A model generated the notes under the pieces. That model saw only the letters and a program-made list of their open reading frames with translations, made no database searches and was not told the DNA's origin. Of a DNA stretch of 64,000 bases, positions 27,575 to 48,468 are shown piece after piece; the stretch's first letter is position 1; each line of letters opens with the position of its first letter. The stretch covers positions 102,892 to 166,891 of the IMG/VR virus record IMGVR_UViG_3300044972_002389; one strand, written 5' to 3'. Source of the DNA: a virus. The position numbers and the translations under genes were made by a program.

Positions 27575-28786
27575 ATGAGCAAGTTCAGTTGCCCTGTGGT
27601 GCGTGTGGCCGCAGTCGAAGAACATCCGAATGCGGATCGCCTTTCTCTTGTGCGCCTTGAAGGCCTCGGTTATCTCTGCATCGCAAACAAACTAGAGGAT
27701 GGTAGCCCGCGCTACAAGCCCGGTGACTGGGTCGTATACATTCCCTCAGCCTCGGTGCTGCCTGAATGGCTGCTCAAGGACATGGGATTTTGGAACGAAG
27801 ACGCTGGTAAGGGTGTGCTGGCAGGCAGTGATGGCAACCGTGTGAAGCCACTCAAGCTGCGTGGTATTTTCAGCGAAGGTGTGCTGTATGGGCTCATTGC
27901 ATATGGTGATGACGATTGCCTTTCTGCTGATTTTGGGTCGGCGACGGATGTACATGTAGTAGGCAAAGACAGTCTTGAATATCCAGTCAAGCTAGGCGAG
28001 GATGCTGCTGCAATCTTGGGCATCACCAGGTGGGAGCCGCCCATTCCCGCTGCGATGTCTGGTGAAGTTGCCAGTGTTGCTGAGGCTGCTCTTACCTACG
28101 ATTTTCAGCGTTGGGAGAGCGTGCCTGACATCTTCGAACCTGGTGAGGTGGTGGTGGCCCAAGAAAAAATTCATGGATCTTGTACCATCATCCAGTACTT
28201 CCCAGGCATGGACCATCCCGAGATGTTCCCCGACCATGCAGGCTACCGCAGCATCACTGTCAGCAGCAAGGGACTAGGCGGTCAGGGTTTGGTGTTCAAG
28301 AACAACGAAGCCAACGCCAACAACCTCTATGTGCGGGCACTTGGCACACTGCTAGCCGACCATGACCTCGCCGGGCTCCTCCACAGGATGAGCAAGGTGG
28401 ACGGCGGTGCTCATCCGGTGGCTATCCTGGGAGAAGTTTTCGGCAAGGGCGTGCAGGACCTCGACTACGGCACCACTAAGCCCACGTTCCGGGTGTTCGA
28501 CATGCGGATCGGGCGGGAGTGGCTAAGTCCCGATGCCGTGGCCTACTGGGCAAAGGACCTGCCCTGTGTACCTACCCTCTACACTGGCCCCTTTGACCAA
28601 ACTGCCATTGAGGCTGTGAGAGACGGTGTCACAACGGTGGGTGGCACCAATGTGCGGGAAGGTGTGGTGGTGCGCAGCCTGGTTCCCACCGAGCATCCCC
28701 TGCACGGTAGGAAAATCTGCAAATTCATCTCTCCGGCGTATCTGCTCCGCCGAGTGAAGAACGGCGAGGCAACGGAGTTCAACTGA
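27575..28786 (+). CDS. ATP-dependent RNA ligase, Rnl2-like nucleotidyltransferase domain fused to N-terminal tRNA-binding OB domain
   Basis: N-terminal VAAVEEHPNADRLSLVRLEGLGYLCIANK resembles the tRNA_bind (Trbp111/EMAP-type) OB fold. VAQEKIHGSCTII matches T4 Rnl2 motif I (VAREKIHGTNFSLII). EVFGKGVQDLDYG, REGVVVR and RKICKFISP parallel motifs III to V. Confidence 0.7.
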   Translation: MSKFSCPVVRVAAVEEHPNADRLSLVRLEGLGYLCIANKLEDGSPRYKPGDWVVYIPSASVLPEWLLKDMGFWNEDAGKGVLAGSDGNRVKPLKLRGIFSEGVLYGLIAYGDDDCLSADFGSATDVHVVGKDSLEYPVKLGEDAAAILGITRWEPPIPAAMSGEVASVAEAALTYDFQRWESVPDIFEPGEVVVAQEKIHGSCTIIQYFPGMDHPEMFPDHAGYRSITVSSKGLGGQGLVFKNNEANANNLYVRALGTLLADHDLAGLLHRMSKVDGGAHPVAILGEVFGKGVQDLDYGTTKPTFRVFDMRIGREWLSPDAVAYWAKDLPCVPTLYTGPFDQTAIEAVRDGVTTVGGTNVREGVVVRSLVPTEHPLHGRKICKFISPAYLLRRVKNGEATEFN

Positions 28787-28868
28787 TGCGCTACGATCTA
28801 CTGGAGGTCTACTGCTGCCTATGCCCAAGTCCCTAGACATATTGATCCCAGAAACAGAAACTTTCTGG

Positions 28869-28896
28869 TTGACAATGTCCGGAACTGTGCTAATAT
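28869..28896 (+). promoter_or_regulatory. sigma70-type promoter (consensus family)
   Basis: TTGACA-16-TGcTAATAT, plus a second TATAAT at 28901. Confidence 0.5.
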
Positions 28897-28923
28897 GACG
28901 TATAATACATAAAGGACTAACAA

Positions 28924-29196
28924 ATGAGCGATCTCCCCAAGCCTATGTTTGCTAACGTTGGCCGCGCGTATGTGGCTGCTGCCGCGTTGGGTCTAGACAC
29001 TAGCAATCTCAGTCGTGATCGTGCTGATACTGTGCTCCGCGCGCTGGTCAAAATGCCTGGTTGGCTGGAACAAAACCTGGATGTGTATCAGATGTGGATG
29101 GCTGATGTTGACCCCTGGCATTGCTTCATCCGTGACCTGAGCGCGTACACCAAGCAAGTGCGGGCTCACACGAAAGCTACCACGCGGGCCAAGTGA
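28924..29196 (+). CDS. hypothetical protein (90 aa), moron-like cassette
   Basis: Own promoter and RBS. Flanked by direct repeats of the ligase 3' end. Confidence 0.45.
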   Translation: MSDLPKPMFANVGRAYVAAAALGLDTSNLSRDRADTVLRALVKMPGWLEQNLDVYQMWMADVDPWHCFIRDLSAYTKQVRAHTKATTRAK

Positions 29197-29208
29197 GTAT
29201 CGACTGCA

Positions 29209-29290
29209 TAGCAGGAAAATCTGCAAGTTCCTCTCTCCGTCATATCTTCTCCGACGGGTGAAGAACGGTGAAACAACAGAGTTCAACTGA
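29209..29290 (+). pseudogene. orphan 3' fragment of an RNA-ligase homologue (last about 26 codons)
   Basis: About 86% nt identity to 28705-28786. Translation RKICKFLSPSYLLRRVKNGETTEFN-stop versus GRKICKFISPAYLLRRVKNGEATEFN-stop. The differences are mostly synonymous. Confidence 0.5.
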
Positions 29291-29302
29291 GTCGGGGCCA
29301 CG

Positions 29303-29581
29303 ATGACCGAAAACTATATTCTCTTGAAATGGGGCACACTCAAGGGCTATCGGGTAGCTGACAACCCTGTGGCGCAAGGTTTGATTAAACAGTACATGGA
29401 GTTGGGTGCCAGCGCCATGCACCAACAGGACACTCCCGAACAAAAACAAATCATATGCGAACTGCTGCCTGCTCTGGCGTGCCCGCGCCGTGCCTTCCCC
29501 AACCCATACGACCCCACAGGGCTGCTGCACTGGATCGCAACCCAGGAGCCGGTCATTCTCGGACGCGACCCCGCTGGCTAG
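29303..29581 (+). CDS. hypothetical ORF spanning the low-GC/high-GC junction
   Basis: GC content rises sharply inside this ORF from about 29450. It may be a junction artefact. Confidence 0.3.
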   Translation: MTENYILLKWGTLKGYRVADNPVAQGLIKQYMELGASAMHQQDTPEQKQIICELLPALACPRRAFPNPYDPTGLLHWIATQEPVILGRDPAG

Positions 29582-30745
29582 CCGGCTGGCCATTTCAGGA
29601 TGCCGCCATGTCACGCCGCTTTCTCGTTACCGGAGGTGCCGGCTTCGTCGGCAGCCATCTCGTCGCCGCCCTGCTGGACCAAGGCGCGGAGGTGGTGGTG
29701 TTCGACAACCTGCGCACCGGCCATCGCGAAGCCGTGCTCCCCGGCGCCACGCTGGTCACCGGCGCGCTGGAGGACCCCGATGCGATCGCGTCCGTGCTGG
29801 CGCAGGGGCCGTGGCATGCGGTGTTCCACTTCGCCGCGCTGTCGCTGGTGGGCGATTCCATGCGCGACCCGATCGGCTATCTCTCGGCCAATGTCGGCAA
29901 CGGCCTGCGCCTGTTGGAGGCCTGCGTGAAGCACGGCGTGCCCCGCTTCGTGTTCTCCTCCACCGCCGCCCTGTTCGGCACGCCAGACCGCATGCCGATC
30001 GACGAGGAAACCGCGATCGACCCCGGCTCACCCTACGGCGAAAGCAAATGGATGATGGAGCGCGCGCTGGGCTGGGCCGAACGCATCCACGGCATGCGCT
30101 CCGCCTGCCTGCGCTACTTCAACGCCGCCGGCGCCGACCCGCAGGGCCGCCTGGGCGAGGACCACACGCCGGAAACCCATCTGATCCCGTTGGCCATCGA
30201 CGCCATGCTCGGCCGTCGCGCCGAACTCGCCGTGTTTGGCACCGATTACGACACGCCGGACGGCACCTGCATCCGCGACTACATCCATGTCACCGACCTC
30301 GCCGCCGCCCACCTCGCGGCGCTGGAGCGGCTGGACCACGCCAGCGTCACCTACAACCTCGGCACCGCCGCCGGGCATTCGGTGCTGGAGGTGATCCAGA
30401 GCGTGGAGCGCGTCAGCCGCCGCCCGGTGCCGCACCGCTTCGCCCCACGCCGCCCTGGCGACCCCGCCCGCCTTGTTGCCAGCCCGGCGCGGATCATGCG
30501 CGAAACCGGCTGGCAGCCGCGCCTCGCAGCACTGGATGACATCGTCGCCACCGCCCTGGCCTGGCGCGAAGCCCATCCGCGCGGCTACGGCGGATGAGTT
30601 ACCGCATCCCGGCGCATCGGCCTGTGCGTGTTCTCAGAAGTGCATTTTTCACCTACTTATGTCCTCATCCGCCCAGCCGCCGCAGCGAGGACCGCCACGC
30701 CATGAGCCAGCCTGCCGCGACCACGGTCGCCAAGAACCTGGGCGC
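29450..30745 (+). other. high-GC (about 70%) island of foreign origin carrying galE
   Basis: Abrupt compositional shift relative to the roughly 45% GC flanks. It contains intact galE plus about 150 bp of donor 3' flank with a truncated downstream start (MSQPAATTVAKNLGA). Confidence 0.6.
29608..30597 (+). CDS. galE: UDP-glucose 4-epimerase
   Basis: LVTGGAGFVGSH Rossmann motif, YGESK catalytic Y-x-x-x-K, and full-length SDR-extended GalE architecture. High-GC codon usage. ATG at 29608; the ORF-track start at 29455 is upstream. Confidence 0.85.
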   Translation: MSRRFLVTGGAGFVGSHLVAALLDQGAEVVVFDNLRTGHREAVLPGATLVTGALEDPDAIASVLAQGPWHAVFHFAALSLVGDSMRDPIGYLSANVGNGLRLLEACVKHGVPRFVFSSTAALFGTPDRMPIDEETAIDPGSPYGESKWMMERALGWAERIHGMRSACLRYFNAAGADPQGRLGEDHTPETHLIPLAIDAMLGRRAELAVFGTDYDTPDGTCIRDYIHVTDLAAAHLAALERLDHASVTYNLGTAAGHSVLEVIQSVERVSRRPVPHRFAPRRPGDPARLVASPARIMRETGWQPRLAALDDIVATALAWREAHPRGYGG

Positions 30746-30885
30746 ATGACGCTGGAAGTCCTGCATGGAGTTTCCCAACCAAGAAACTTATCTGCAATGT
30801 TTGCTCACATGGAGTTGACGGCATCTGTGAGTCTGTTGCGTGTGATACAATGTACCAACACCCTCTCTATGGACGGAGATAAAAA

Positions 30886-30914
30886 GGTTGACACAGTCTG
30901 TCTGTGCTGTATAT
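30886..30914 (+). promoter_or_regulatory. sigma70-type promoter (consensus family)
   Basis: GGTTGACA-17-TGTATATT, then AAGGAG RBS and ATG 30940. Confidence 0.45.
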
Positions 30915-30939
30915 TGAAGCTACACAAGGAGAACAACAA

Positions 30940-31422
30940 ATGGAAGCCACGCCTGATCTAGCTGTCTACGTGCTGGCCCGAACTGATCTGCCCAGTATGA
31001 ACCCAGGAAAGCTGGCTGCACAAGTACATCATGCTGGAACCCAGATGATGAGCCTATTTGCAGATCATCCACTAGTTCAACAGTATGTTGCCGACGGTGT
31101 CTCACAAGGTGCCTACTACTTCAACACCACAATTGTGCTGGGTGCCACAATGGACCAGCTTCATGGTCTGAGATGCACTTATGGTTGGGAATACCACCTC
31201 ACTGTCAAGGGGTCAGTCGTCGACCCCAGCTACCCATTTTTTGTGGAAAATCAAGAGGTAGCTGATCTTGTTGCAGCTAATGGCAAGGCAGCTGTCATCA
31301 AAACCATGGATGATGGGCGTGTGCTGATGACTCGCCAAGAGACCACTTGCATTTGGTGCCTTGTGGATCGCAACAAGCCCGAAGTTTCAGACATTCTAGG
31401 CCATCTCAAACTCTATCCCTAA
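30940..31422 (+). CDS. PTH2-like (peptidyl-tRNA hydrolase 2 family) protein
   Basis: LAVYVLARTDLPSMNPGKLAAQVHHAG parallels the PTH2 N-terminal motif MVLVVRxDLxMGKGKIAAQxxHA. The remainder is divergent. Confidence 0.45.
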   Translation: MEATPDLAVYVLARTDLPSMNPGKLAAQVHHAGTQMMSLFADHPLVQQYVADGVSQGAYYFNTTIVLGATMDQLHGLRCTYGWEYHLTVKGSVVDPSYPFFVENQEVADLVAANGKAAVIKTMDDGRVLMTRQETTCIWCLVDRNKPEVSDILGHLKLYP

Positions 31423-31570
31423 CAACAAAGGACACTGCCTGTGCTATTGCTGATTGAACTCATCGGTGCTCTGGTGCTCATTGGCGTATGTGCCTATGGT
31501 GCCAGCAAACTGATCGAAAGTTTCTACGATCGCAACCGAACCCCTCCCGACCGCAAGGACCCCAACTGAT

Positions 31571-32491
31571 ATGTGGAATCAACCTCCGCGTGACTCCAAT
31601 CCTCGAATCAACCCTCTACAGGAGACTCCCCGAGTGAACGCTCGATTCATCGCTACCATGGTAGGTGGCGCAATGGCTGCTCTGCTGGCACTCACAGTGA
31701 TCCTCGGCAGCTGGTACACAGTTGATGAGCGTCAGCGCGGTGTGCTGCTCCGCAACGGCAAGCTGGTGAGCGTGGTGCAGCCAGGGCTGGGATTCAAAAT
31801 CCCCTTCATCGACAATGTGGTGCTCATGAGCACCGAGACCGTCCTGCTGCGACTGGACAAGGAAGCGGTCTACAGCCGAGACCAGCAACCTGCAACTATC
31901 ACCTTCTCGGTGAGCTGGCGTGTGAGCGAAGACAATGTGGACGATGTCTACAAGGAGTTTGGCGGGCTCCGAGGAGTTCAAGACCGTGTGATCCTGCCGG
32001 GTGTGCGTGACGAGCTCAAGAACGTAATGGGTCGCTACAACGCAGTCACAGCGATTCAGGATCGCACCCGACTGGGCACAGATGTCAAGGCGGCCATTGT
32101 GGCCAACATCAAAGGGCCGTTTGTGATCGAGAATCTGGCTATTGAAAACATTGATTTCAGTGACGCTTACGAAAAATCCATCGAACAGCGAATGCTCGCG
32201 GAGGTGGCTGTTGAAAGAGATCGACAGGATGCGATCCGAGAGAAGGTGCAGGCTGAAATTGTTGTAACCAAAGCGCAGGCCGAAGCTGATGCAGTCAAGG
32301 CACGAGCTGGAGCTGAAGCTGAAGCTATCCAACTGCGCGGCGAAGCTGAAGCCAAGGCCATCCGGGCCCGAGGCGATGCACTTCGCGCGAACGCAGAGCT
32401 AGTCACACTTACGGCTGCAGAGCGATGGGACGGTAAGCTCCCTACCACTATGGTCCCAGGTGCAGCACTGCCCTTTGTGCATGTGAAGTAA
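31571..32491 (+). CDS. SPFH/band-7 (HflC/prohibitin-like) membrane protein
   Basis: N-terminal TM segment. TVDERQRGVLLRNGKL...PGLGFKIPFID is SPFH-like. C-terminal Ala/Glu-rich coiled coil AEADAVKARAGAEAEAIQLRGEAEAKAIRARGD. Confidence 0.7.
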   Translation: MWNQPPRDSNPRINPLQETPRVNARFIATMVGGAMAALLALTVILGSWYTVDERQRGVLLRNGKLVSVVQPGLGFKIPFIDNVVLMSTETVLLRLDKEAVYSRDQQPATITFSVSWRVSEDNVDDVYKEFGGLRGVQDRVILPGVRDELKNVMGRYNAVTAIQDRTRLGTDVKAAIVANIKGPFVIENLAIENIDFSDAYEKSIEQRMLAEVAVERDRQDAIREKVQAEIVVTKAQAEADAVKARAGAEAEAIQLRGEAEAKAIRARGDALRANAELVTLTAAERWDGKLPTTMVPGAALPFVHVK

Positions 32492-32498
32492 TCAAACA

Positions 32499-32527
32499 GA
32501 AAGGTGGGTGAAAGCTCACCTTTCTCC
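32499..32527 (+). terminator. rho-independent terminator
   Basis: gaaaggtg-(10 nt)-cacctttc followed by a T-rich tract; 8 nt after the SPFH stop. Confidence 0.45.
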
Positions 32528-32555
32528 TTGACAAAAGTGTCAAACCCGCTAAATT
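32528..32555 (+). promoter_or_regulatory. candidate sigma70-type promoter
   Basis: TTGACA-16-cgcTAAATT, preceding ATG 32560. Confidence 0.4.
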
Positions 32556-32559
32556 ACAG

Positions 32560-32745
32560 ATGTTGATAAACCAAGTGAGCTATCCACACATGACCGAAGA
32601 TCAGATTGAGCGTACCGTGGAACGTGCAACAGATCGCCTGGACGAGCGTTATATGCGAGGGGAGATCAGCCGGGCACGCTATGCTGATGAAGCTGACAAG
32701 CTGAGTACATGGGCTGAACGCGAGTATCGCAGGGCGCGTCGGTGA
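32560..32745 (+). CDS. hypothetical protein (61 aa)
   Basis: ORF between a promoter and a terminator. Confidence 0.4.
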   Translation: MLINQVSYPHMTEDQIERTVERATDRLDERYMRGEISRARYADEADKLSTWAEREYRRARR

Positions 32746-33083
32746 AATTGGGACAACACCTACACCAACGCCAAATGCTGTTGGATCAAGAGCTGTTGAG
32801 AACCACGTTGTTGGCAGTGCAACGTGAGCGAGAACGTGTGCATGACCAGCACTATGATCTGGAACGCTTTAAAAGCCAGATCATCAGTTGTGTTTTGGAA
32901 AATCGGCCCATGCTCATGTTTACTCCTGGAAATAACTGGACTGACCCTCAAAATCCTGAACACCCTCCACGTTTTGTGTGCCATCGAGACCACAAGTTAT
33001 GGCAAGAGTTCCTAGTTTGGTTGGAAAGTGAACACATGGAAATCCAATACCATGGATGGAATTTCACTGTGATAGCCAAGTGA
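32742..33083 (+). CDS. hypothetical protein (113 aa)
   Basis: ATGA overlap. Confidence 0.45.
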   Translation: MKLGQHLHQRQMLLDQELLRTTLLAVQRERERVHDQHYDLERFKSQIISCVLENRPMLMFTPGNNWTDPQNPEHPPRFVCHRDHKLWQEFLVWLESEHMEIQYHGWNFTVIAK

Positions 33084-33364
33084 CAGAAGACAGAGTCTTC
33101 CACAATGCGCTGCTTTTGTTTCCCAAAGATCTTTTCTGCTGCTCTGTTACACTTGGCGAGGAATACTACCGCCAACAATACGAAATCTTGGATTGGCTAC
33201 GCCAACAAGGACCTGGTGACACTGGAATTGGTGATCCACCACAAGGTGAGTGCGTTTGGGCATATACACAGCTTTTTGGATACCAGTATATCGCTTTCCC
33301 CACTAGGGAACTGGTGACGCATTTTCAGCTGGTTTGGCAAAACAACACAGGACATAGTGGTTGA
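33056..33364 (+). CDS. possible LTW-family relative
   Basis: C-terminus FPTRELVTHFQLVWQN resembles the family motif. Cys/Trp-rich. Confidence 0.4.
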   Translation: MEFHCDSQVTEDRVFHNALLLFPKDLFCCSVTLGEEYYRQQYEILDWLRQQGPGDTGIGDPPQGECVWAYTQLFGYQYIAFPTRELVTHFQLVWQNNTGHSG

Positions 33365-33389
33365 CACGGATGTGCAGACTCTGTATGTT
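33361..33389 (+). promoter_or_regulatory. candidate sigma70-type promoter
   Basis: TTGACA-17-TGTATGTT, then AAGGAG and ATG 33414. Confidence 0.4.
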
Positions 33390-33413
33390 GTGGGTGTTGC
33401 AAAGGAGACGGAT

Positions 33414-34139
33414 ATGCGAATTGATGTGCCCAGCATCGTAAATGATCCCCAGATGAGAACCTTGCCCTATTGGCTGGAGGTATATCCCAATCAGGATCAA
33501 GCTCGCCGGGCTCGAGCACTGGCTCGCAAGGCGTATGATCGCACACGGCTAGCTGAGGTGCAGCGTTGGCGCTGCTGCTGGTGTCACTGCGAGATGCGTG
33601 GCGAACAAGGCTTCAAGAACAGTGCCACCATTGAGCACATCACTCCTCGCAGTTGTGGTGGCACTGACCACATCACCAACTTGGCTGTGGCGTGTGGCCG
33701 ATGCAACAACCGTCGAGGCAACACGCCCTGGGAAGATTTCCTGCAGGCTATGGAAATGAGTCGGCCCGCGCCTGAGACTGGCAGCTTTCGCTCACTGGCT
33801 TTTGAACGTAAGATGCGCCGAGAGGCTGCTGAGCAGAACAAGCGCATCAAGCAGTTGACTCATTTGGTGCGCAACCACGAGGTGCAAGCCACTGCTACTC
33901 AAACGCGACGCGAACAGTGCAAGTCACTGGAAGCCCAATACTCAGACATGCTGCCAGGATTGCAGCTGGCTGGTTTCCAACGAGCCAAGAGGATGCGTCG
34001 CGAAGTTGACCGTCAACTGGCACTGCAAGCCCTCTCACAAAAGGTCAGCAACCCTTTTGAAGTGGACAGTCGGCCCTGGCGCATCTACGAGCGTATGCGT
34101 AACAAGCAGAGTGTTGACACACTGCAAGCAGCCGCTTAA
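33414..34139 (+). CDS. HNH endonuclease
   Basis: CCWCHCEM...ATIEHITPRSCGGTDHITNLAVACGRCNNRRGN is an HNH motif with a C4 zinc site. ATG at 33414; the ORF-track start at 33357 is a GTG. Confidence 0.7.
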   Translation: MRIDVPSIVNDPQMRTLPYWLEVYPNQDQARRARALARKAYDRTRLAEVQRWRCCWCHCEMRGEQGFKNSATIEHITPRSCGGTDHITNLAVACGRCNNRRGNTPWEDFLQAMEMSRPAPETGSFRSLAFERKMRREAAEQNKRIKQLTHLVRNHEVQATATQTRREQCKSLEAQYSDMLPGLQLAGFQRAKRMRREVDRQLALQALSQKVSNPFEVDSRPWRIYERMRNKQSVDTLQAAA

Positions 34140-34147
34140 ATAAGGTT

Positions 34148-34540: not shown

Positions 34541-35443
34541 ATGAGTCACTTCACCGTTATGGTTATTGGGCCTGACCATGAAGCCCAGCTTGCTCCCTAC
34601 CACGAGTTTGAATGCACTGGTGTGGCAGACCAGTATGTGGTGGATGTGGACGTCACTGACAAGTTCCTTGCCGATATGAAAGATGCGGAGGAACATGCAG
34701 AGGAAGACCAATCTGCCCTTGACTATGCGCTGGAATATTACGGTTTTGAAGACCAGGTAGTTGAAGATGAGAGCGAAGTTGATCGAGAGGGTGAGCACAA
34801 GTTTGGATTTGTGGTGGTCCGGGACGGTGAGCTCGTCCGGGCTGTGAAGCGCACCAACCCCAACAAGCAGTGGGACTGGTACGAGGTTGGTGGGCGATGG
34901 ACTGGCACGCTCAAGCTCAAGCCTGGTGCAAAGGGTGTGCAAGGCCGCCCTGGACTGGGAACCCAAGGAGCAAAACAAGGGTATGCTGACCAGGCGAGGA
35001 TGGGAGACATCGACTGGGCAGGCATGCGTGACGAGGCAGGCGAGAAGGCCGGAGTCTATTGGGATCGGGTGCGGGCACTTGCTCCAAATGTTTGGGAAAG
35101 CTGGGACAGTGTGATTTCACGCTTCCCCAGGGACACTGACGGTGCTCGAAATTTCTATCATAACCAAACGGGCAGGCAGGCCCTGCACCAAGCCAAAGAC
35201 TTGTTTTGGTGTGAGGACTCGGTGCTGGTCGGCCGTGAAGAGTATGTGCAAACTGCTCGAGACAGTGCTGGCATGACCTTTGCATTTGTCAAGGACGGTG
35301 CGTGGATGGAGCGCGGCAGCATGGGCTGGTGGGGCATGAGCACAGACGACATGCCCAAGAGTGAGTGGTATGCTCGGATGAATGAGATGATCAACGGACT
35401 GCCCGAGGACACACTGATCACCATTGTTGACTGCCACATCTAG
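34541..35443 (+). CDS. hypothetical protein (300 aa, acidic N-terminus)
   Basis: Long ORF after a consensus promoter. Confidence 0.55.
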   Translation: MSHFTVMVIGPDHEAQLAPYHEFECTGVADQYVVDVDVTDKFLADMKDAEEHAEEDQSALDYALEYYGFEDQVVEDESEVDREGEHKFGFVVVRDGELVRAVKRTNPNKQWDWYEVGGRWTGTLKLKPGAKGVQGRPGLGTQGAKQGYADQARMGDIDWAGMRDEAGEKAGVYWDRVRALAPNVWESWDSVISRFPRDTDGARNFYHNQTGRQALHQAKDLFWCEDSVLVGREEYVQTARDSAGMTFAFVKDGAWMERGSMGWWGMSTDDMPKSEWYARMNEMINGLPEDTLITIVDCHI

Positions 35444-35511: not shown

Positions 35512-36729
35512 ATGCACTACACGTTTCCCGAGATCACGCACCTGGATCAAGTGCTGGAAGCTGTCCAGGGTGTGGAAGGCTTCATTGTAGCCCAGCGGCC
35601 CTGGGGCACTGTGGTCAACTACATTCAGATGGGCCCGGACATGTTCCCCGAGGTCCATACTGCTGGAGGCAGCGCCAGCATGCGCGAGCGGCAGACTCGA
35701 CTCAAGGCTATCCGCCGGGAGTGTAGGGGGCTGCTGTTCAGCCTTGATGGAAAGTTGGTGAGCCGCGCATTTCAGAAGTTTTGGAACGTGGGCGAACGGC
35801 GCGAGACTTTGATTGAAAACATCGATCTCACTCAGCCACACATCATCCTTGAGAAGTTGGATGGAAGTATGATTCGTGCTCTACCTCTAGGTAAGGGCTA
35901 CTGTCTTGCAACCAAGATGGGGCCCACTGCTGTAGCAGCACAGGTTGAGCCGTTCGTGGCAACTCGAGACAACTATGACCGATTTATCCGAGACACACTG
36001 GAGCAGGGATACACTGCCTGTTTCGAGTGGTGTACTCGTCAACAAAAGATTGTGTGTGATTATCCAGTTGATCGACTGGTGCTGACTGCTGTGCGTCACA
36101 TCAACTCGGGTGAGTATCTCACCTACTCTCAGATGCAGGAACTGGCGGCCGAGTATGAGCTGGATCTAGTCAAGGCCTATCCTGGTACTGTGGCTAGCAT
36201 GGAGCAGCTCGTTCGGGAGACGCATGAGCTGGAAGGCGAGGAGGGGTGGATCATCCGGTGGGATGATGGACATATGGCCAAGTTGAAATCGGCCTGGTAT
36301 GTGCGTATCCACCGTGCCAAGGATGCTCTCACGCAGGAGAAGAACCTCATCGACCTCATGCTGGCGGAAAAGCTGGACGACGTCAAGAGCTTTCTGCCTG
36401 TGGAGGACCTGGCTCGCATCGACGCCTACGAGAACGCCTTCTGGACGGGTGTGGGGCAAACTGCCTACATATGGAAGGACCAGTATGTCAAGCTCCGGCG
36501 GCAGTTTGGTGACGATAGAAAGCGGTTTGCACTGGAGGCAGCACCGGGTCTTGAGCCCAACCTGCGTAGTGCTGTGTTCAAGGTCTGGGCCCGTGAGGGC
36601 CACGTGGACTGGCGTGAGCTGGTGTGCGATGTGATCCGCAAATGCACTGGCACGCAGACCCGGGTGGACGAGGCACGCTCACTGTTCCGTGCGCCGCGGT
36701 GGAGCCAGCAAAGTGTGGGAGACGAATGA
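35512..36729 (+). CDS. rnlA: T4 Rnl1-family RNA ligase
   Basis: Collinear matches to T4 Rnl1: [25 protein letters not shown] vs [40 protein letters not shown] vs ILTKEDGSLV (motif I KxDG); [19 protein letters not shown] vs [43 protein letters not shown] vs [24 protein letters not shown]. Confidence 0.8.
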   Translation: [405 protein letters not shown]

Positions 36730-42149: not shown

Positions 42150-42578
42150 ATGAACACCAATAATCCCAAAACTGTTTGGCACGAGGATGGAACCAGCCCA
42201 GTTCCTGGCTCGCGTGTATTTGTTTTTGGCAGCAATCTCGCTGGCATTCACGGTGCCGGAGCGGCCCGGGAGGCTGCCGCTAAATTTGGTGCCCTGTATG
42301 GTTGCGGCCATGGCTGGCAACCTCTCAATCAAAGCTATGCCATTCCCACCAAGGACCGTCGAATCCACACCCTAGCTTTGGATGAGATCAAACTCTATAT
42401 TGATGAATTTGTGCGACTCACACAAAGCCCGTTTGTTATGAATAGTGGTTATTGGGTCACCCGAGTGGGCTGTGGCCTAGCTGGTTACCAAGACCACGAC
42501 ATTGCACCATTGTTCCGTGGCGCAGTAAATTGCAGTTTTCCTTTGCCTTGGCGCCAGTATTTGGAGCTTGAGACTTGA
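42150..42578 (+). CDS. hypothetical protein with Gly-rich GSNxxGxHGxGAA motif
   Basis: VFVFGSNLAGIHGAGAAREAAAKFGALYGCGHG suggests a nucleotide-binding Rossmann/SLOG-like fold, unassigned. Confidence 0.5.
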   Translation: MNTNNPKTVWHEDGTSPVPGSRVFVFGSNLAGIHGAGAAREAAAKFGALYGCGHGWQPLNQSYAIPTKDRRIHTLALDEIKLYIDEFVRLTQSPFVMNSGYWVTRVGCGLAGYQDHDIAPLFRGAVNCSFPLPWRQYLELET

Positions 42579-42883
42579 TTGACATAGCTTTTCCTAATAG
42601 CCGCATTGGGCACTACATGCGGGTCACAAAGAGGTCTGGAAAGTGGGTGATGCAACAAAGCTACATTGCACTGATTCACAAAATCGCCACCACCGAAGAC
42701 TGCTATTACCTTGACTTCTACAAAAGCCGAGATAATGCCACAATGCTGGAGTGGTGCCAAAACGCATGGGGTCCGCCAGAGGTTGGTGAAACATGGTGGC
42801 AAAAGCTCACTGGGCAAGCTCAACTCACACTTGTGATACGTGGCGAAGAGCGTGTCACGCAATGGCAACTAACCTGGGAGTAA
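42575..42883 (+). CDS. LTW-motif family member (array E)
   Basis: WCQNAWGPPEVGETWW...RGEERVTQWQLTWE. Confidence 0.45.
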   Translation: MIDIAFPNSRIGHYMRVTKRSGKWVMQQSYIALIHKIATTEDCYYLDFYKSRDNATMLEWCQNAWGPPEVGETWWQKLTGQAQLTLVIRGEERVTQWQLTWE

Positions 42884-42887
42884 GCCA

Positions 42888-43175
42888 ATGAGCAGTGAAT
42901 ATCAGCATTTGAAAACTCTTGCATCGGAAATTTTCCGGCTGATGGGCGAGGAGAGTTTCACAGAGATAGACAGCATCTTGAGCAATATGCAGCCTACACT
43001 TCAAACAGAAGTAGAGATGGTGGCACTGCTACGCTACAGTTTTACAGCTCGGCATCATCTCACCTGTTACCATATCTATCTTGACGCAGTAGCACAGGAA
43101 TTGCTGCGTCGTGGCAAAGATGTGGAGAGGATTTTGCAGGGACTGCCCTTCTACAGCATCGATAGGTATCCATGA
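42888..43175 (+). CDS. hypothetical protein (95 aa)
   Basis: ORF only. Confidence 0.4.
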   Translation: MSSEYQHLKTLASEIFRLMGEESFTEIDSILSNMQPTLQTEVEMVALLRYSFTARHHLTCYHIYLDAVAQELLRRGKDVERILQGLPFYSIDRYP

Positions 43176-43438
43176 GTCAGCAGGCTGCGCAGACTAGGGA
43201 GGCACATTTGTTGAATCACCAACCAGTTGACTGGGCAGATGATGTGATGGGGTTTCCCTACGCAGTCGCATGCAAGGTCACAGTGGTGGATTTGTGGCTT
43301 CGAACCAACTGGTGCAAGCAAAACATTGGCTGCTGGTTGGTAGATTGGACTCACACATATGATAACCACCGGCAGGTGTATTGGTACTGTTTCTCTAGTC
43401 AGGAGCAATTGACACAGTTTCAACTCACATGGTGTTGA
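43172..43438 (+). CDS. LTW-motif family member (array E)
   Basis: WLRTNWCKQNIGCW...SSQEQLTQFQLTWC. Confidence 0.5.
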   Translation: MSQQAAQTREAHLLNHQPVDWADDVMGFPYAVACKVTVVDLWLRTNWCKQNIGCWLVDWTHTYDNHRQVYWYCFSSQEQLTQFQLTWC

Positions 43439-43702
43439 ACGTTTCACAAGAAGGAAGGAACAGGTGATTCGTATGGTTTTGCAGAAAATTTATCAACAAA
43501 ATCAATGGTATGATAGCTTAAGTGGACATTACGTGCACCCCTACAAAGTTCCTGTTGTTTCTCACGCCCCAAGCGGTTGCATTCGCCCGGGACATCTATT
43601 GGGTTATACTTTTCTCAGGCACTCCTATGTTCCTCTATCTCATGTGGGGCTTATGGCACTGTGGCGCTTTCCGTATGTGATCAAGAACAAGCGTCAGCAA
43701 CG

Positions 43703-43733
43703 TTGACACACAACAACAATCCGTTACTATAAT
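43703..43733 (+). promoter_or_regulatory. candidate sigma70-type promoter
   Basis: CGTTGACA followed by TACTATAAT, then AAGGAG and ATG 43753. Confidence 0.4.
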
Positions 43734-43752
43734 ATTACAAAAGGAGACTACT

Positions 43753-44124
43753 ATGCGAATTCAGGTGCCATTCAAGCCAGGCTACCGTTTCTGGAGCCCG
43801 CGTGTGCTCCGTCGAAGCGAGCTGGTCACCATCACGCATGAGTGCAAGGAGTATTCTCGGCGAGAAGAAACTCTTGAGATCAGTGCCCGGCACAAGGAGA
43901 TCACCAGTGTTGAAATCACACTGAACCAAACTGGTGAGTCCAAGTTTCGCTATTGGGCTGTGACTGTGGGAAAGACAATGGCTATACACACTCTTGTTGA
44001 TCCCTATTCGGGATTCAGCAATGAGCAAGATGCAACAGAGTTCGCTCGTCTCTGGCGAGATACACAGAGCACTGAATATTTTGGTAGCCCAATTGGCGAG
44101 TGCCATGATTACGACCATGAGTGA
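43753..44124 (+). CDS. hypothetical protein (123 aa)
   Basis: Promoter and RBS upstream. Confidence 0.5.
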   Translation: MRIQVPFKPGYRFWSPRVLRRSELVTITHECKEYSRREETLEISARHKEITSVEITLNQTGESKFRYWAVTVGKTMAIHTLVDPYSGFSNEQDATEFARLWRDTQSTEYFGSPIGECHDYDHE

Positions 44125-44317
44125 CGAAGTCATCAATTATGTGATTGCACGTCCTTGGGATACTCAAGAGCCCAACAATCTCTGCATCTATCACTTGCAC
44201 AGTGAAGTGCATCGTGGCACAATAGAGGATGCAATGCTGACCTTGTCTCGTGTGCAACAGAGTAATCCTGGTTTTGAATATGAGGTATATGAGGTGTTTT
44301 ACAGGAAGTTAAGTTGA
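44119..44317 (+). CDS. hypothetical protein (about 66 aa)
   Basis: ATGAGTGA start/stop overlap. Internal Met of ORF 43994..44317. Confidence 0.35.
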
Positions 44318-44592
44318 TGGGTTGGTTTGATAACTGCACAAAGGTTTGTCTATCGGGCCAAATACCCTGTAACTGTGATTTCATGCCGGGTCAGCAGGTG
44401 TTTCTCACAAGCAAGGACAGAGATCGTCATGCTGAAGACTATGCAAGTAGGAAAACCAATTGGAGTGCGCCTTTTGAACCTTGGGTTGTGGAAACATGGC
44501 GCAGGTGTAGTGAAGCAACAGGCGCAGACAAAGTTGCCCAGAAAGTGCGTGACCGTTTGACCAACAGGCCTGTCTTTGCCAAACGACCTTAA
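44314..44592 (+). CDS. hypothetical protein (92 aa)
   Basis: ATGA overlap. Cys-rich N-terminus. Confidence 0.4.
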   Translation: MMGWFDNCTKVCLSGQIPCNCDFMPGQQVFLTSKDRDRHAEDYASRKTNWSAPFEPWVVETWRRCSEATGADKVAQKVRDRLTNRPVFAKRP

Positions 44593-44872
44593 TACCTGCT
44601 GTATTTTTGAATTTCCTATGGGAGGTGTTACCAGCTGGGTAGTGCGGTTGCCCAACAGCACCAACGGCCACGAACCCCAAGTAGTCAATTGGCTAATTGA
44701 GAGATTTGGCATCGACGATCACGAATATTGGACAAAAATCTTCAACCAGAAGAGAGAGACGCCCAACAGCCTTTGGAAACGAGGCAGCATCTGCACCTAT
44801 GTGTATCAGGAATACTGGTTCACCAACAGAGATGATGCATTTGAGACCTATTTGGTGTTCTCAAAAATTTAA
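44576..44872 (+). CDS. possible degenerate LTW-family relative
   Basis: WFTNRDDAFETYLVFSKI resembles WFTNKDDLIWFGLVWES of 22548..22748. Confidence 0.35.
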   Translation: MPNDLNTCCIFEFPMGGVTSWVVRLPNSTNGHEPQVVNWLIERFGIDDHEYWTKIFNQKRETPNSLWKRGSICTYVYQEYWFTNRDDAFETYLVFSKI

Positions 44873-44887
44873 ATTGAAAGGAAAATT

Positions 44888-45544
44888 ATGTTAGATACTA
44901 TGGCAGATGTGATGCGCACAGCCTACGAGAGAGGTTGGATCACCACAAGAGACGGAAATGTAAGCATGCGACGAGCAGTACAAAACTGCATGTATATTAC
45001 ACCAACAGGAGTTCGCAAACAGGTTCTCACCAGCGAGAGCATGATCAAGCTGTATTTTCCTGAAGACCGGATGAGTTCAGATGCATGGAGCAGGATGACT
45101 CGTGCTGATGACCTTTACCAACAGCGAATCATTGGCTTGCGTCCCAGTGGTGAACTGCCCTTCCACTATTGGCTACAAGTTAACACGCCTACTTCAAATC
45201 GTGTTGTGTTGCATCTTCATCCCACTCACATTGTGGCTGCAATGTATGCTGGTATGGATCTACAACAGATTGTACGTGATTTTCCTGAGCTTGAGAACCA
45301 CACAACTGTAGGCCCAACTGTGGGCAAAGTACAAGCGCAAAGCACAGATCTTGGCTCAGCTGTTGCCCAAGCTTTTGATGTGCAACCTGATGGAGGCATC
45401 AATAGCCACATAATTGGGTTGCACATGCATGGCGTAGTAGCAGTGGATGTGGATCCTTGGTCAGCCTATGGTCACATCGAGAGATTGAACCATGTGTGTG
45501 AGATTGTGTTGGCTGCTGGAGGAATGCGTGACCAAACCCGTTGA
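44888..45544 (+). CDS. class II aldolase/adducin-fold protein (AraD/FucA/MtnB-like)
   Basis: AYERGWITTRDGNVSMRR...CMYITPTGV is the G-N-x-S-x-R...I-T-P-S/T-G motif. HLHPTHIVAAM and IGLHMHGVVAV are candidate metal-binding His clusters. Confidence 0.65.
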   Translation: MLDTMADVMRTAYERGWITTRDGNVSMRRAVQNCMYITPTGVRKQVLTSESMIKLYFPEDRMSSDAWSRMTRADDLYQQRIIGLRPSGELPFHYWLQVNTPTSNRVVLHLHPTHIVAAMYAGMDLQQIVRDFPELENHTTVGPTVGKVQAQSTDLGSAVAQAFDVQPDGGINSHIIGLHMHGVVAVDVDPWSAYGHIERLNHVCEIVLAAGGMRDQTR

Positions 45545-45824
45545 GCATGACCTCAACTCACTACCCCTTGGTCAAATCCACGAGGCCATGATTTGGTTTT
45601 ACGACACATATGATGTACGAGAAGCTGAGGCTGACAAGTCTACTGGCGTAATAAACGTTAAACTGCCTATTGACAACTTCTCTGAGGTGGCACTGACTTT
45701 GCACGAGCTGTGGCAGGAAACCTTCCTGCGCAGCCAGCACAGTGATCTCAAGGACGAGTATCAACGCTATGAAAGTTTGCGTCTGTTGATCAAAAGCTTG
45801 ACTGAAAAAACAATTCGCGTATAA
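45492..45824 (+). CDS. hypothetical protein (start uncertain, possibly 45588)
   Basis: ORF overlaps the aldolase gene by 53 nt. The first internal ATG lies downstream. Confidence 0.3.
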   Translation: MCVRLCWLLEECVTKPVEHDLNSLPLGQIHEAMIWFYDTYDVREAEADKSTGVINVKLPIDNFSEVALTLHELWQETFLRSQHSDLKDEYQRYESLRLLIKSLTEKTIRV

Positions 45825-45852
45825 CAAGACAACACTGCACTCAGGAAGCATC

Positions 45853-46953
45853 ATGTTTGAAAATGTAGATTTTGGCATTCGAGAAGATCATTTTGGCCAT
45901 GGGCTGTGTAGCCGGATGCGGTTGGAGTTTCTCAGCCAGCAAACCGGCGCGACAATGGTAGTGTGTCGAGCTGTGAAGCTGGAAATGCGCCGCAACATCG
46001 TAGACGTGTTCACTGGTATGGAAAGCCTCCTAAACAAGACTTTTCCTGAGGCAGAGGGCACTTGGCAGTTTGTGCAAGTAGATCCTGACTACTGGATGAT
46101 CCAGAATAGCAGTATGTTCATTATTGGTGAGCAGCGCAGTGCAAACAGCCGACGCAGTTGGGGGTATGATGAAGGCAGCGTTCGTGTGAACCGTGCCAGC
46201 ATCGAGGCATATGGAACTCCAGACCGGGTTAACCAGCTGCTGACTGCTGTGGAAGACACGTTCCAAGATCGCACTTTTACCAAAATCACGTGGTATTACA
46301 AGGATGGTTCTTCGGTGGACTATCGCAGCCTCTACGTTGATCAGGACAACCAGATTCAAAACAGCTTTTATCCTTGGTTCACACAAGGTGTTGATGCCTT
46401 CATTGAAGATTACCTGACTAGCACAGGCACAGTGCTACTCCTCTATGGGCCACCTGGAACTGGCAAAACCAGCTTTCTCAAGCATCTCATTTGTAGCCGG
46501 CGCATGAATGCGATCGTCAGCTACGATGAAGACATCCTGCGTGATGATCGCTTTTTCATTGACTTTTTGGCTGATGATGAGCACAACATCATGATCATCG
46601 AGGATGCTGACCTGCTGCTGAGCAATCGAGAAAGTGAACAGAACAAGATCATGAGCAAGTTCTTGAATGTCAGTGATGGCATTGTGAAGGTGGCCAGCAA
46701 GAAGATGGTGTTCACTACCAATATTAGCCAACTAAACAAGGTGGACCCAGCTTTGCTACGCAAGGGGCGTTGCTACAGTGCAGTGGAGTTCCGCAACATG
46801 AGTCCAAATGAGGCTGCCCTTGCTGCTGAGTCTGCTGGTGAACCCCAGCAAAACTGGAAAGGTAAGGAGCATTGGACACTAAGTGAAGTTTTCAATCGCG
46901 ATATTGCCACAGCAGAAGTTACGCCTACAATGGGATTTGGTTTCCGGGTTTGA
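45853..46953 (+). CDS. classic-clade AAA+ ATPase
   Basis: Walker A GPPGTGKTS, Walker B IMIIEDADLL, and second region of homology VFTTNISQLNKVDPALLRKGRC. Confidence 0.75.
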   Translation: MFENVDFGIREDHFGHGLCSRMRLEFLSQQTGATMVVCRAVKLEMRRNIVDVFTGMESLLNKTFPEAEGTWQFVQVDPDYWMIQNSSMFIIGEQRSANSRRSWGYDEGSVRVNRASIEAYGTPDRVNQLLTAVEDTFQDRTFTKITWYYKDGSSVDYRSLYVDQDNQIQNSFYPWFTQGVDAFIEDYLTSTGTVLLLYGPPGTGKTSFLKHLICSRRMNAIVSYDEDILRDDRFFIDFLADDEHNIMIIEDADLLLSNRESEQNKIMSKFLNVSDGIVKVASKKMVFTTNISQLNKVDPALLRKGRCYSAVEFRNMSPNEAALAAESAGEPQQNWKGKEHWTLSEVFNRDIATAEVTPTMGFGFRV

Positions 46954-46999
46954 AAATCATAGGAAATCTATAAATAAGGAACTATTACCAAGGCAGGCA

Positions 47000-47206
47000 A
47001 TGAAAACAATAGCAGTAATATTTCTTTCATATGTAGGCGCGTTGTGCGCCTTTGCTGCTAGTGGTTTTCTTGCCAGCTGGGCATATCAGTTAAATGGATG
47101 TATATGGACCTCAAGCGGTGTGTTTGGGGTCAGTTTTTTGGCTATTGTAACTGGATTTGCTGGTGTAATTACAAACTTGTTTGACTTCTCCGACTGGTTC
47201 CGTTGA
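47000..47206 (+). CDS. small membrane protein (about 68 aa)
   Basis: Internal Met of ORF 46883..47206. Two to three hydrophobic helices. Confidence 0.4.
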   Translation: MKTIAVIFLSYVGALCAFAASGFLASWAYQLNGCIWTSSGVFGVSFLAIVTGFAGVITNLFDFSDWFR

Positions 47207-47230
47207 CAGCCAAAAGTTTCATGCTATAGT
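47203..47230 (+). promoter_or_regulatory. sigma70-type promoter (consensus family)
   Basis: CGTTGACA-16-TGcTATAGT, 5 nt before ATG 47236. Confidence 0.5.
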
Positions 47231-47235
47231 TAAGC

Positions 47236-48468
47236 ATGAAAAAGTTATCCTTACATAGTATAGTAGTTTTGATTGGTCCCACTAAGAGTGGCAAAAGCAC
47301 ATGGGCCCAAAACCAGTTTGACGCTGATGAAATCATAAGCCTTTCTTCAATCAAGAAAGAGTTGACAGGCAACAATTCAACAGTGGATATTTTGCCAAAT
47401 ATTTGGCACGAACTCTATCGTAGAGTTGATATTCGTATCGCCAACGGGCAACGTGCAGTAGTTGATTCCACTAATCTAAAAGACAAGGACAGATTTACTT
47501 TTCTTGATATTGCCGAAAAGTATGGTGTGGAAGTCTATTACAAACCTTTTGACCTTGAATGGGGCACAATACAGCAAAACTCTGGTTCTTGTTATGACTT
47601 TGACTCTTTGAGAAAAAGCTATAGTATATGGAAAAATGCTCGCACACAGGTGTTACAGGGCGATAATAAACGAGCTGTTGTGCTGTGTGGTGACGAAACC
47701 ACTGTTGGATTTCCAAATGAATTGCAGAGTGCAAGGATTTTAGCAGTAGGCGATGTTCATGGCAATTTTCCAGCTATGCAGCAGGCAGTGCAAATGGCAC
47801 AACAGTTACACGCAAAGCTAGTGTGGCTGGGAGATATTGTGGACTATGGCGCCAATAATCTCAAATGTTTGAAACTTGCATATGACACTGTTCGAGACGG
47901 GCAAGCACTTATGATTTGGGGAAATCACGAAAGAAAAATTGATCGCTGGATTAGGAGCGACTTGGGTGAAACCTTTAATGGCAAACTTAGCGAGTCAAAT
48001 CTATCTACTATAAGAGAAATCAACAGTTTGAATGACTTGCGGAAAAAGAAGTTTCTTGCAGCTTGGACAGCACTAAGAAACTGGAGTTTTAACCACCTAA
48101 CAGTGGGAAAATTTTTGTTTACTCATGGTGCAGCAACACCTGCCATGTGGGCCAACAAGGATCGCAGATTGCAAGGTGTTTGTGCAAATATGGCCTATTT
48201 TGGTGAGGTAGACACTGTTTCACCGACCAAGAATGATGGATATCCAAACCGTATCTGGAATTGGGTTCAAAACATACCTGCTGATCATACTGTTGTTGTA
48301 GGGCATGATTGGCTTGATCGTGTCAGTTACAACGTTGTGGAAAAAGCAAATTCTTGTGGCGGCCGGGCATTTGTTACAGATTGTGGTAGCAGCAAAGGCG
48401 GTCGTTTGGGTGCACTTTTTGTTGATCAACATAGCAAAGAAGTTTTGCCTTACTATTTTGACACTTAA
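47236..48468 (+). CDS. pnk: polynucleotide kinase-phosphatase: T4 Pnk-like P-loop kinase domain fused to calcineurin-like metallophosphoesterase
   Basis: [20 protein letters not shown] vs T4 Pnk [58 protein letters not shown] vs T4 [36 protein letters not shown]. The C-terminal half has GDVHGN, GDIVDYG and GNHE, which are MPE/PPP phosphoesterase motifs rather than the T4 HAD phosphatase. Confidence 0.75.
   Translation: [410 protein letters not shown]

Follow-up and report, generated by a model that had tools for sequence, protein, structure and literature searches.

A candidate partial RNA break-repair repertoire with a degenerate kinase site in the accessory region of an uncultivated jumbo phage

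We analyzed a stretch of viral DNA of 64,000 nucleotides, positions 102,892-166,891 of the IMG/VR record IMGVR_UViG_3300044972_002389 (hereafter the window, to which all coordinates refer), with respect to a group of dispersed genes expected to act on broken RNA. With moderate confidence, we assign the window to an uncultivated jumbo phage of the Atu_ph07/Phosso lineage and regard it as an accessory-gene region with a partial RNA break-repair repertoire of a kind that has already been catalogued. Five genes make up the repertoire: two RNA ligases of different types, an RlaP nucleotidyltransferase, a PTH2-fold protein, and a protein related to bacterial Pnkp. The last of these retains a strictly conserved phosphoesterase, whereas its kinase-like domain lacks two residues essential in the characterized enzyme.

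Seven open reading frames (ORFs) had been grouped into an RNA/tRNA repair toolkit by a sequence-only reading of the window. All seven were found at exactly the coordinates below, on the + strand. Profile searches against Pfam, PHROGs, and NCBIfam placed each of them in the superfamily assigned to it, and catalytic motifs were read directly off the translations. As a toolkit for RNA/tRNA repair, the five genes mentioned above are credible; the remaining two, which encode a Nudix hydrolase and an exonuclease, were not tied to tRNA repair by the homology searches.
47236-48468, + strand: kinase-phosphatase (K-P), a bacterial-Pnkp-like two-domain protein of 410 amino acids (AAA_33 and Metallophos)
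35512-36729, + strand: ligase A, a T4 Rnl1-type ATP-dependent RNA ligase (Pfam RNA_lig_T4_1 and T4_Rnl1_C)
27575-28786, + strand: ligase B, a DraRnl/NgrRnl (Rnl5)-type RNA ligase (TIGR02306 and Pfam RNA_ligase)
16484-17371, + strand: RlaP (RNA-ligase-associated Pol-beta) nucleotidyltransferase (Pfam RlaP PF10127 and phrog_388)
30940-31422, + strand: PTH2-fold protein of 160 amino acids (partial match to Pfam PTH2 PF01981, and predicted structure)
21444-21866, + strand: Nudix hydrolase (Pfam NUDIX, 58 bits, 1.3e-15)
12915-13493, + strand: DEDDh 3'-5' exonuclease (Pfam Rv2179c-like, 34.7 bits, 1.9e-8)

Ligase A matched RNA_lig_T4_1 with 92 bits (6.7e-26), and its residues 270-359 matched T4_Rnl1_C, the C-terminal all-helical tRNA-specificity domain, with 32.3 bits (cut-off, 27; 1.3e-7). 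Among solved structures, T4 Rnl1 (PDB 2c5u) was found at 3.8e-26, and the alignment reached T4 residue 327. Ligase motifs I (K115-LDG), III (E172), IV (E244-G), and V (K257/K259) were intact. Residues K115, E172, E244-G, K257/K259, R72, and K89 aligned to the essential residues K99, E159, E227-G, K240/K242, R54, and K75 of the T4 enzyme, respectively. The score against TIGR02308 was 133.7 bits, under the equivalog cut-off of 242.25. Judged by these matches and motifs, ligase A is complete as a T4 Rnl1-type enzyme, albeit divergent. It was 34.6% identical to the ligase at the syntenic position in Phosso and 47.6% identical to that in the related locus L005. An ORF of 300 amino acids directly upstream of the ligase gene (34541-35443, phrog_10079) was considered as a conserved ligase partner and rejected: it had no Pfam or NCBIfam match, and none of 92 related loci carried a homolog.

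Ligase B matched RNA_ligase (PF09414) with 68.5 bits (1e-18), and an N-terminal PHA02142 OB domain was detected at residues 8-105 with 26.3 bits, just below the cut-off of 27. Over residues 10-392 the protein passed the curated cut-off of TIGR02306 (RNA_lig_DRB0094; 169.5 versus 151.15 bits). The motifs of its C-terminal nucleotidyltransferase domain were intact (K198-IHG, E287, E362-G, and K380/K382). Structures of the Naegleria RNA ligase (5cot, 2.7e-4) were the sole PDB matches. Neither an Rnl2 structure nor an Rnl2-type C-terminal domain was matched, and the domain order, OB followed by nucleotidyltransferase, is the reverse of that in Rnl2. Because of this order, the TIGR02306 pass, and the exclusively Naegleria solved relatives, ligase B was assigned to Rnl5 and not to Rnl2. 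Rnl5 enzymes seal nicks in duplexes with RNA as the 3'-OH strand. The closest phage homologs, with 36-39% identity, belong to Caulobacter and Brevundimonas giant phages.

The RlaP ORF scored 61.5 bits against Pfam RlaP (gathering score, 23; 1.3e-16) and 6.9e-46 against phrog_388, and its GS...DxD motif was intact (G29-S30 and D41-x-D43). A sequence search against solved structures gave no match. Identity was 50% to homologs of Caulobacter phages and 47% to the gene of Rhizobium phage RHph_I1_18 that adjoins a PTH2-like gene. RlaP is known to add one or two nucleoside monophosphates to RNA 3'-OH ends, and can restore the function of a tRNA short of a nucleotide before ligation (PMC12776372). 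The window RlaP is likewise predicted to add one or two nucleotides to RNA 3'-OH ends before ligation. The ligase nearest to it in the window lies 10.2 kb away.

The weakest family call of the set was that of the PTH2-like protein, in which only residues 9-52 matched Pfam PTH2 (28.9 bits; cut-off, 23). A structure was predicted with AlphaFold2 (predicted local distance difference test score [pLDDT], 91.3). The top 11 PDB matches of this model in Foldseek were all archaeal Pth2 or relatives (probability, 0.96-1.0; template modeling score normalized to the target [target TM], up to 0.72), and the best of them were 3erj, 2zv3, and 1xty (probability, 1.0; target TM, 0.6-0.72). The predicted model thus confirmed the PTH2 alpha/beta fold. 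Relative to archaeal Pth2, which has about 115 amino acids, the protein carries an insertion, and it belongs to a family of 165 homologs of about 160 amino acids, many of them on contigs of 300-485 kb. K24, within a GK-AAQ-HA motif, and D95 were invariant among 38 homologs; by motif position, they would correspond to the catalytic residues of archaeal Pth2. The protein is predicted to be a peptidyl-tRNA hydrolase.

In K-P, residues 10-115 matched the P-loop kinase family AAA_33 with 50.9 bits and residues 167-358 matched Metallophos with 50.5 bits. The kinase-like domain comprises residues 1-150 and the calcineurin-type metallophosphoesterase about 166-410. The best relatives were the modules of Clostridium thermocellum Pnkp, both for the kinase (PDB 4mde, 1.8e-7) and for the phosphatase (4j6o, 1.3e-4), whereas T4 Pnkp (1ly1) was far weaker, at only 3e-3. 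The best NCBIfam match was TIGR04075 (bacter_Pnkp; 3.8e-28), at 98.2 bits against an equivalog cut-off of 750. Neither a C-terminal ligase domain nor an HAD match was found with Pfam and NCBIfam. The phosphoesterase motifs GDxHG, GDxxDxG, and GNHE were present, as were the metal ligands D173, H175, D200, N230, H231, H297, and H357, which were invariant in all 118 full-length homologs from metagenomes. K-P is predicted to be a 3'-end healing enzyme.

The kinase-like domain presented a different picture. Its P-loop, GPTKSGKST, was intact. However, Ser37 and Lys40 occupied the positions of Asp38, the general base, and Arg41 of C. thermocellum Pnkp kinase (CthPnk), in an ungapped phmmer alignment, in the family alignment, and in hhalign (99.4% probability), and residues 33-41 contained no acidic residue. 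Lys21, Asp38, and Arg41 are each essential in CthPnk (Das et al., PMC3902929), in which D38N is catalytically dead yet still binds substrates; D35N of T4 Pnkp is inactive as well (PMC3902929). In the general-base column of the 118 full-length homologs, 56 had Asp, 21 had Glu, and 41 had another residue. A separate set comprised 54 locus-encoded homologs of at least 340 amino acids, near-duplicates included. The P-loop, the acidic residue, and the Arg were all retained in 27 of these; the P-loop alone was retained in four, among them the closest relatives of the window (L013 and L014); and in 22 the P-loop was gone entirely. Family members with an intact S-S-D-x-x-R site include the Phosso and Atu_ph07 proteins. 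Several of the fully degenerate proteins (L009, L018-L022, and L024) are still encoded beside the HNH gene described below, with an Rnl1 gene a few kb upstream. The ratio of kinase to phosphoesterase divergence had a median of 1.13 where the site was intact and was about 1.5 in the clades with only the P-loop or without it. Within the clade of the window, the ratio of nonsynonymous to synonymous substitution rates (dN/dS) was higher for the kinase-like domain (0.165) than for the phosphoesterase (0.058). A kinase site decayed to the same degree or further is seen in about half of the K-P family, while strict conservation is the rule for the phosphoesterase. We concluded that the phosphoesterase is the selected activity of K-P. 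The kinase-like domain is most likely a pseudokinase still under constraint.

If K-P were instead a fully active bifunctional enzyme that supplied 5'-phosphate and 3'-OH ends to Rnl1 and ligase B, the window would encode complete T4-like heal-and-seal. The intact P-loop, the presence of the other conserved kinase residues R62, R63, D77, T79, and N80, the purifying selection on the domain, and an architecture that fits the kinase and phosphatase modules of bacterial Pnkp are all in keeping with an active kinase. On the other hand, replacement of the general base alone abolished activity in both characterized enzymes, and sister clades without the whole P-loop keep Rnl1 nearby, which indicates that the kinase is dispensable in this lineage. 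We therefore consider a working kinase unlikely. A Walker-A scan for another P-loop kinase in the window gave only an AAA ATPase (45853-46953) and two implausible short overlapping ORFs. Since K-P is without two essential acceptor-site residues and no other candidate kinase was found, the full heal-and-seal pathway is probably not encoded in the window. In a related contig of 188 kb (L012), positions 6246-6716 encode a standalone AAA_33 kinase of 156 amino acids, 3.3 kb upstream of a two-domain K-P; separate small kinases thus occur in the lineage.

We also asked how the repair genes are arranged in other genomes. In RHph_I1_18, the order is PTH2-like gene, Seg homing endonuclease, RlaP, a small ORF, and a metallophosphoesterase; a tRNA cluster follows after about 3.7 kb. 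Contig L010 has an RNA ligase, a Pfam-called RlaP, K-P, and HNH within about 8.2 kb (3741-11985). In Phosso and L008, K-P is preceded at a distance of 1-2 kb by the gene for a canonical PTH2 of 110 amino acids, and the interval contains Cys- and Ser-tRNA synthetase genes. In phage CcrColossus, an annotated nucleotidyltransferase gene of unconfirmed homology to the window RlaP precedes the ligase B homolog by 1.4 kb. Rnl1 was found within 10 kb of K-P in 17 of 34 non-redundant two-domain loci (from 41). When Rnl1, PTH2, RlaP, and Rnl5 were counted together, at least one was within that distance in 23 of the 34, versus 2 of 19 loci with a standalone phosphoesterase. In L048 and L064, where the context is rearranged, Rnl1 directly follows the phosphoesterase. 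Furthermore, K-P matched positions 3-310 and the Rnl1-type ligase matched positions 457-686 of the profile phrog_8238 (737 amino acids), indicating that fused kinase-phosphatase-ligase versions exist. The rearranged loci and the fusion profile support a true coupling of K-P and the ligase. The concentration of repair genes is not a chance pattern, nor is it unusual for a jumbo phage.

Immediately after K-P, the window encodes three further conserved genes.
48497-49078, + strand: HNH endonuclease (Pfam HNH_5, 5.5e-16), directly downstream of K-P
49078-49329, + strand: gene of 83 amino acids with no assigned function, a conserved partner of the phosphoesterase
49338-50054, + strand: gene of 238 amino acids with no assigned function, SH3/KOW-like, a conserved partner of the phosphoesterase
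In the jumbo clade, HNH lies directly downstream of K-P and before the 83-amino-acid gene in 34 of 41 non-redundant two-domain loci. Its identity to the L005 counterpart is 60.5%, compared with 42% for K-P. Because its position is stable and its conservation higher than that of K-P, HNH was regarded as a fixed gene and not as a transient homing endonuclease; such behavior is uncommon among free-standing homing endonucleases and suggests domestication or a functional partnership. A same-strand copy of the 238-amino-acid gene followed downstream in 36 of 40 two-domain loci and in 15 of 19 loci with a standalone phosphoesterase (51 of 59 non-redundant loci in total). At standalone loci, which include those of smaller phages, the phosphoesterase, 83-amino-acid, and 238-amino-acid genes form a tight operon with spacings of about 45 and about 300 nucleotides. 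In PA5oct, the two small genes are not adjacent to the phosphoesterase. The 238-amino-acid protein is 57-78% identical across the family, is annotated as hypothetical in Atu_ph07, Phosso, PA5oct, and RaK2-like phages, and had no match in Pfam. Its predicted model comprised an SH3/KOW-like barrel, helices, and a disordered basic tail. It is a highly conserved jumbo-phage core protein. A role of this protein as a nucleotide-metabolism enzyme, which would link K-P to deoxynucleoside monophosphate metabolism near thyX, was considered but found no support, as the model contained only the barrel and helices.

These neighbors raise the question of whether K-P is primarily an RNA end-healing enzyme. 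It might act with the 83- and 238-amino-acid proteins in another process, such as protein dephosphorylation (lambda NinI-like), hydrolysis of signaling or alarmone nucleotides, e.g., diadenosine tetraphosphate (Ap4A; PrpE-like), or a transcription- or nucleic-acid-associated role, the nearness of Rnl1 being an inherited gene order. Consistent with this, the 238-amino-acid gene also follows standalone phosphoesterases without a ligase nearby, weaker profile matches of K-P were to PrpE Ap4A hydrolase and Ser/Thr phosphatases, the Atu_ph07 homolog is annotated as a protein Ser/Thr phosphatase, and the kinase module was repeatedly lost while the phosphoesterase stayed invariant. Nevertheless, the best full-length relative is bacterial Pnkp, with both domains matching structures of the C. 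thermocellum enzyme, and the fused phage proteins and the adjacent Rnl1 of L048 and L064 point back to RNA ends. For its part, the 238-amino-acid protein lacks an enzyme fold that could specify a different pathway, and in PA5oct its gene is not next to the phosphoesterase. A process other than RNA end healing accordingly appears doubtful.

Tentatively, K-P may be viewed as a Pnkp-derived module in which the kinase repeatedly became a pseudokinase, perhaps kept as a domain binding NTPs or RNA ends, and in which the phosphoesterase works with the operon of the 83-amino-acid and SH3/KOW-like 238-amino-acid proteins, plus a domesticated HNH in the jumbo clade. This is possible, though we would not put it higher. 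If true, it would represent an uncharacterized, widespread phage module for RNA 3'-end processing or signaling nucleotides, and phages would seal RNA breaks without a 5'-kinase of their own.

The two remaining ORFs were intact in their motifs. The Nudix box was complete (G33-x5-E39-x7-R47-E-L-N-E-E-T-G-L), and the protein, a homolog of T4 NudE.1, was 37-41% identical to NudE of T4-like phages across 1264 records; T4 NudE.1 decaps NAD-RNA in vitro. Its gene neighbors a family 25 glycosyltransferase. Membership in an NAD-salvage/ADP-ribose module as in Atu_ph07 was also considered and rejected: the identity to the ADP-ribose pyrophosphatase of Atu_ph07 was 26%, and T4-like NudE matched better. 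In the exonuclease, the DEDDh residues D12, E14, D108, H174, and D179 were present. Its best solved relative was 7T2S, Cap18 of an E. coli cyclic oligonucleotide-based antiphage signaling system (CBASS; 2.3e-13), and its homologs were found only in Phosso, Atu_ph07, and huge metagenomic phages. Neither gene showed a neighborhood or family link to tRNA repair, and both were therefore left out of the repair set.

The lineage of the window was determined at the protein level, as no DNA-level relative was found when 22 kb were compared with 50,697 phage records by megablast. K-P, Rnl1, the downstream HNH, the two small genes, and thyX keep their order in the Sinorhizobium phage Phosso (469 kb), in the Agrobacterium phage Atu_ph07 (490 kb), in JGI, ENA, and Logan contigs of 42-493 kb, and in many IMG/VR contigs. 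Public contigs of up to 31 kb encode proteins with 95-99% identity to those of window genes. The window is also syntenic with many metagenomic contigs of 300-500 kb. On the basis of this collinearity, we assign the window to a jumbo phage of the Atu_ph07/Phosso lineage. Genomes related to it measure about 340-490 kb. Ligase B, RlaP, and the PTH2-like gene are nearest to those of Caulobacter/Brevundimonas giant phages and RHph_I1_18.

Several observations weigh against the reading of the five genes as a partial repair repertoire. The GC content is 0.41 for K-P, 0.49 for RlaP, and 0.57 for both ligases; because GC content and nearest relatives differ, the genes form a mosaic and were not acquired as one unit. 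They lie 5-30 kb apart with unrelated genes between them, and the proposal that they constitute a single system did not hold up against this scattering and the mosaic origins. No tRNA or tmRNA gene was found in the window. The tightest conserved neighbors of the phosphoesterase are the HNH, 83-amino-acid, and 238-amino-acid genes and not the ligases. The neighborhood evidence is in large part not independent, as it was drawn from related, syntenic genomes. In addition, a Ser at the general-base position is no strict proof of an inactive kinase, the domain being under purifying selection, and the enzymatic roles of the repair set are predictions from sequence.

Given this layout, the genes might also be independent accessories without a shared pathway: for example, Rnl1 would attach tail fibers in the manner of T4 gp63, phage RNA processing would be served by ligase B and RlaP, and PTH2 would be general translation housekeeping. 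The PHROG label of the Rnl1 family, "RNA ligase and tail fiber protein attachment catalyst", and tail-fiber-like genes about 15 kb downstream agree with such an explanation, as do the dispersed layout and mosaic origins. However, subsets of the genes recur together in unrelated phage lineages, and jumbo-phage surveys give matching distributions of ligases, end-processing enzymes, and RlaP (PMC7824862), so that we regard full independence as very unlikely.

Under the partial-repertoire reading, which we prefer, the following course may be envisaged. A host ribonuclease effector would cut tRNA or another structured RNA, and the PTH2-fold hydrolase would release peptidyl-tRNA stuck on stalled ribosomes. 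The calcineurin-type phosphoesterase would then strip the 2',3'-cyclic or 3'-phosphate to leave a 3'-OH, and RlaP would restore one or two nucleotides where the nuclease had also excised a base. Finally, the Rnl1-type ligase, with its tRNA-specificity domain, would close anticodon-loop breaks and the Rnl5/DraRnl-type ligase would close nicks in duplex RNA. The 5'-phosphorylation would probably not be carried out by K-P; a kinase may be encoded elsewhere in the genome, or the ligases may act on breaks with a 5'-phosphate already in place. PrrC, colicin E5/D, and RloC leave 2',3'-cyclic phosphate and 5'-OH ends; 5'-phosphate and 3'-OH ends are expected of a VapC-type nuclease. Unrelated neighbors would be the Nudix and DEDDh genes.

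Between about 10 and 51 kb, most genes of the window are on the + strand, and many are short. The repair genes are interspersed there with homing endonucleases, an epimerase, an SPFH protein, an aldolase, an AAA ATPase, and dozens of small ORFs. Accessory genes of the region are as follows.
10057-11319, + strand: DUF2201_N putative metallopeptidase with a DUF2201 VWA-like domain (145.8 and 60.6 bits)
11343-12374, - strand: NUMOD3-repeat endonuclease, accessory, among the repair genes
29455-30597, + strand: NAD-dependent nucleotide-sugar epimerase/dehydratase (70% GC and 84% GC at third codon positions; window mean, 47% GC)
31571-32491, + strand: SPFH/Band-7 protein, accessory, among the repair genes
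33357-34139, + strand: second HNH endonuclease, accessory, among the repair genes
44888-45544, + strand: class II aldolase, accessory, among the repair genes
45853-46953, + strand: AAA ATPase (phrog_14322), located a few genes upstream of K-P in 12 closer related loci
The epimerase/dehydratase gene was apparently acquired by recent horizontal transfer from an organism of high GC content. Giant ORFs on the - strand bound the accessory region at 2647-9783 (2378 amino acids) and 54048-63980 (3310 amino acids). Related contigs have ORFs of 3500-4300 amino acids at the equivalent right-hand position, and the copy in L012 contains RCC1/WD40-like repeats. In Phosso and L008, aminoacyl-tRNA synthetase genes lie between Rnl1 and K-P, and Phosso also has a tRNA gene there. 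No Rfam family reached its gathering score in the window, and neither a co-located tRNA cluster nor a Y-RNA-like partner was found.

Taken together, the sequence-only reading was right in its theme, and probably wrong in assuming a working kinase. The window adds one more uncultivated jumbo phage with RNA-repair genes, consistent with tRNA-cleaving defenses being a general pressure on large phages. Beyond the literature reached, two points are new: the systematic decay of the kinase site in a Pnkp-derived family, and the conserved operon of the phosphoesterase, HNH in some cases, and the 83- and 238-amino-acid genes. The former calls for caution in annotation, as domain-based calls of "polynucleotide kinase-phosphatase" overstate function in this phage family. 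The latter is a sensible target for the study of how jumbo phages process damaged RNA ends.

Compared with known systems, the window resembles T4 Pnkp plus Rnl1 in the Rnl1 motifs, in the C-terminal tRNA-specificity domain, and in the principle that the 3' end is healed before the break is sealed. The parallel with T4 had been drawn as Pnk with Rnl1 and Rnl2; its Rnl1 part stands, but the second ligase is of the Rnl5 type by TIGR02306, and the kinase is without the equivalents of Asp35 (general base) and Arg38 (acceptor-binding) of T4 Pnkp. The expectation of domain architectures different from those of T4 was borne out, since the phosphatase is of the calcineurin type and not an HAD (DxDxT) enzyme. 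The genes are also dispersed, unlike those of T4. With DraRnl of Deinococcus radiodurans and NgrRnl of Naegleria gruberi, ligase B shares an N-terminal OB and a C-terminal nucleotidyltransferase domain, whereas it is about 60 residues longer, has KIHG in place of KLDG in motif I, and is phage-encoded.

In both K-P and bacterial Pnkp (C. thermocellum Pnkp/Hen1), a P-loop kinase fold at the N terminus precedes a binuclear metallophosphoesterase. In contrast to the bacterial enzyme, K-P has Ser and Lys in place of Asp38 and Arg41, and a ligase domain (Rnl4) is not fused to its C terminus; the Rnl1-type ligase is a separate protein, with its gene 10.5 kb upstream. Among the larger ORFs of the window scanned with Pfam, there was no Hen1-like methyltransferase.

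Jumbo phages carry RtcB, Rnl1, and Rnl2-class ligases in varying combinations together with polynucleotide kinases (Iyer et al. 2021, Viruses 13:63; PMC7824862). Their phosphatases are HAD or, in a minority, calcineurin-like enzymes; RlaP tracks the ligases, PTH2 rescues ribosomes jammed on cleaved tRNA, and Nudix enzymes take part in conflicts over NAD and ADP-ribose (PMC7824862). Hence, the toolkit that had been called expanded is not new. No RtcB, CCA-adding enzyme, or 2H phosphoesterase was found in the window. The window departs from the jumbo-phage repertoire in its DraRnl/Rnl5-type second ligase, in the degenerate acceptor site of its kinase, and in the 160-amino-acid PTH2 with an insertion, whereas the list of components and the proposed role against host attack on tRNA are alike in both.

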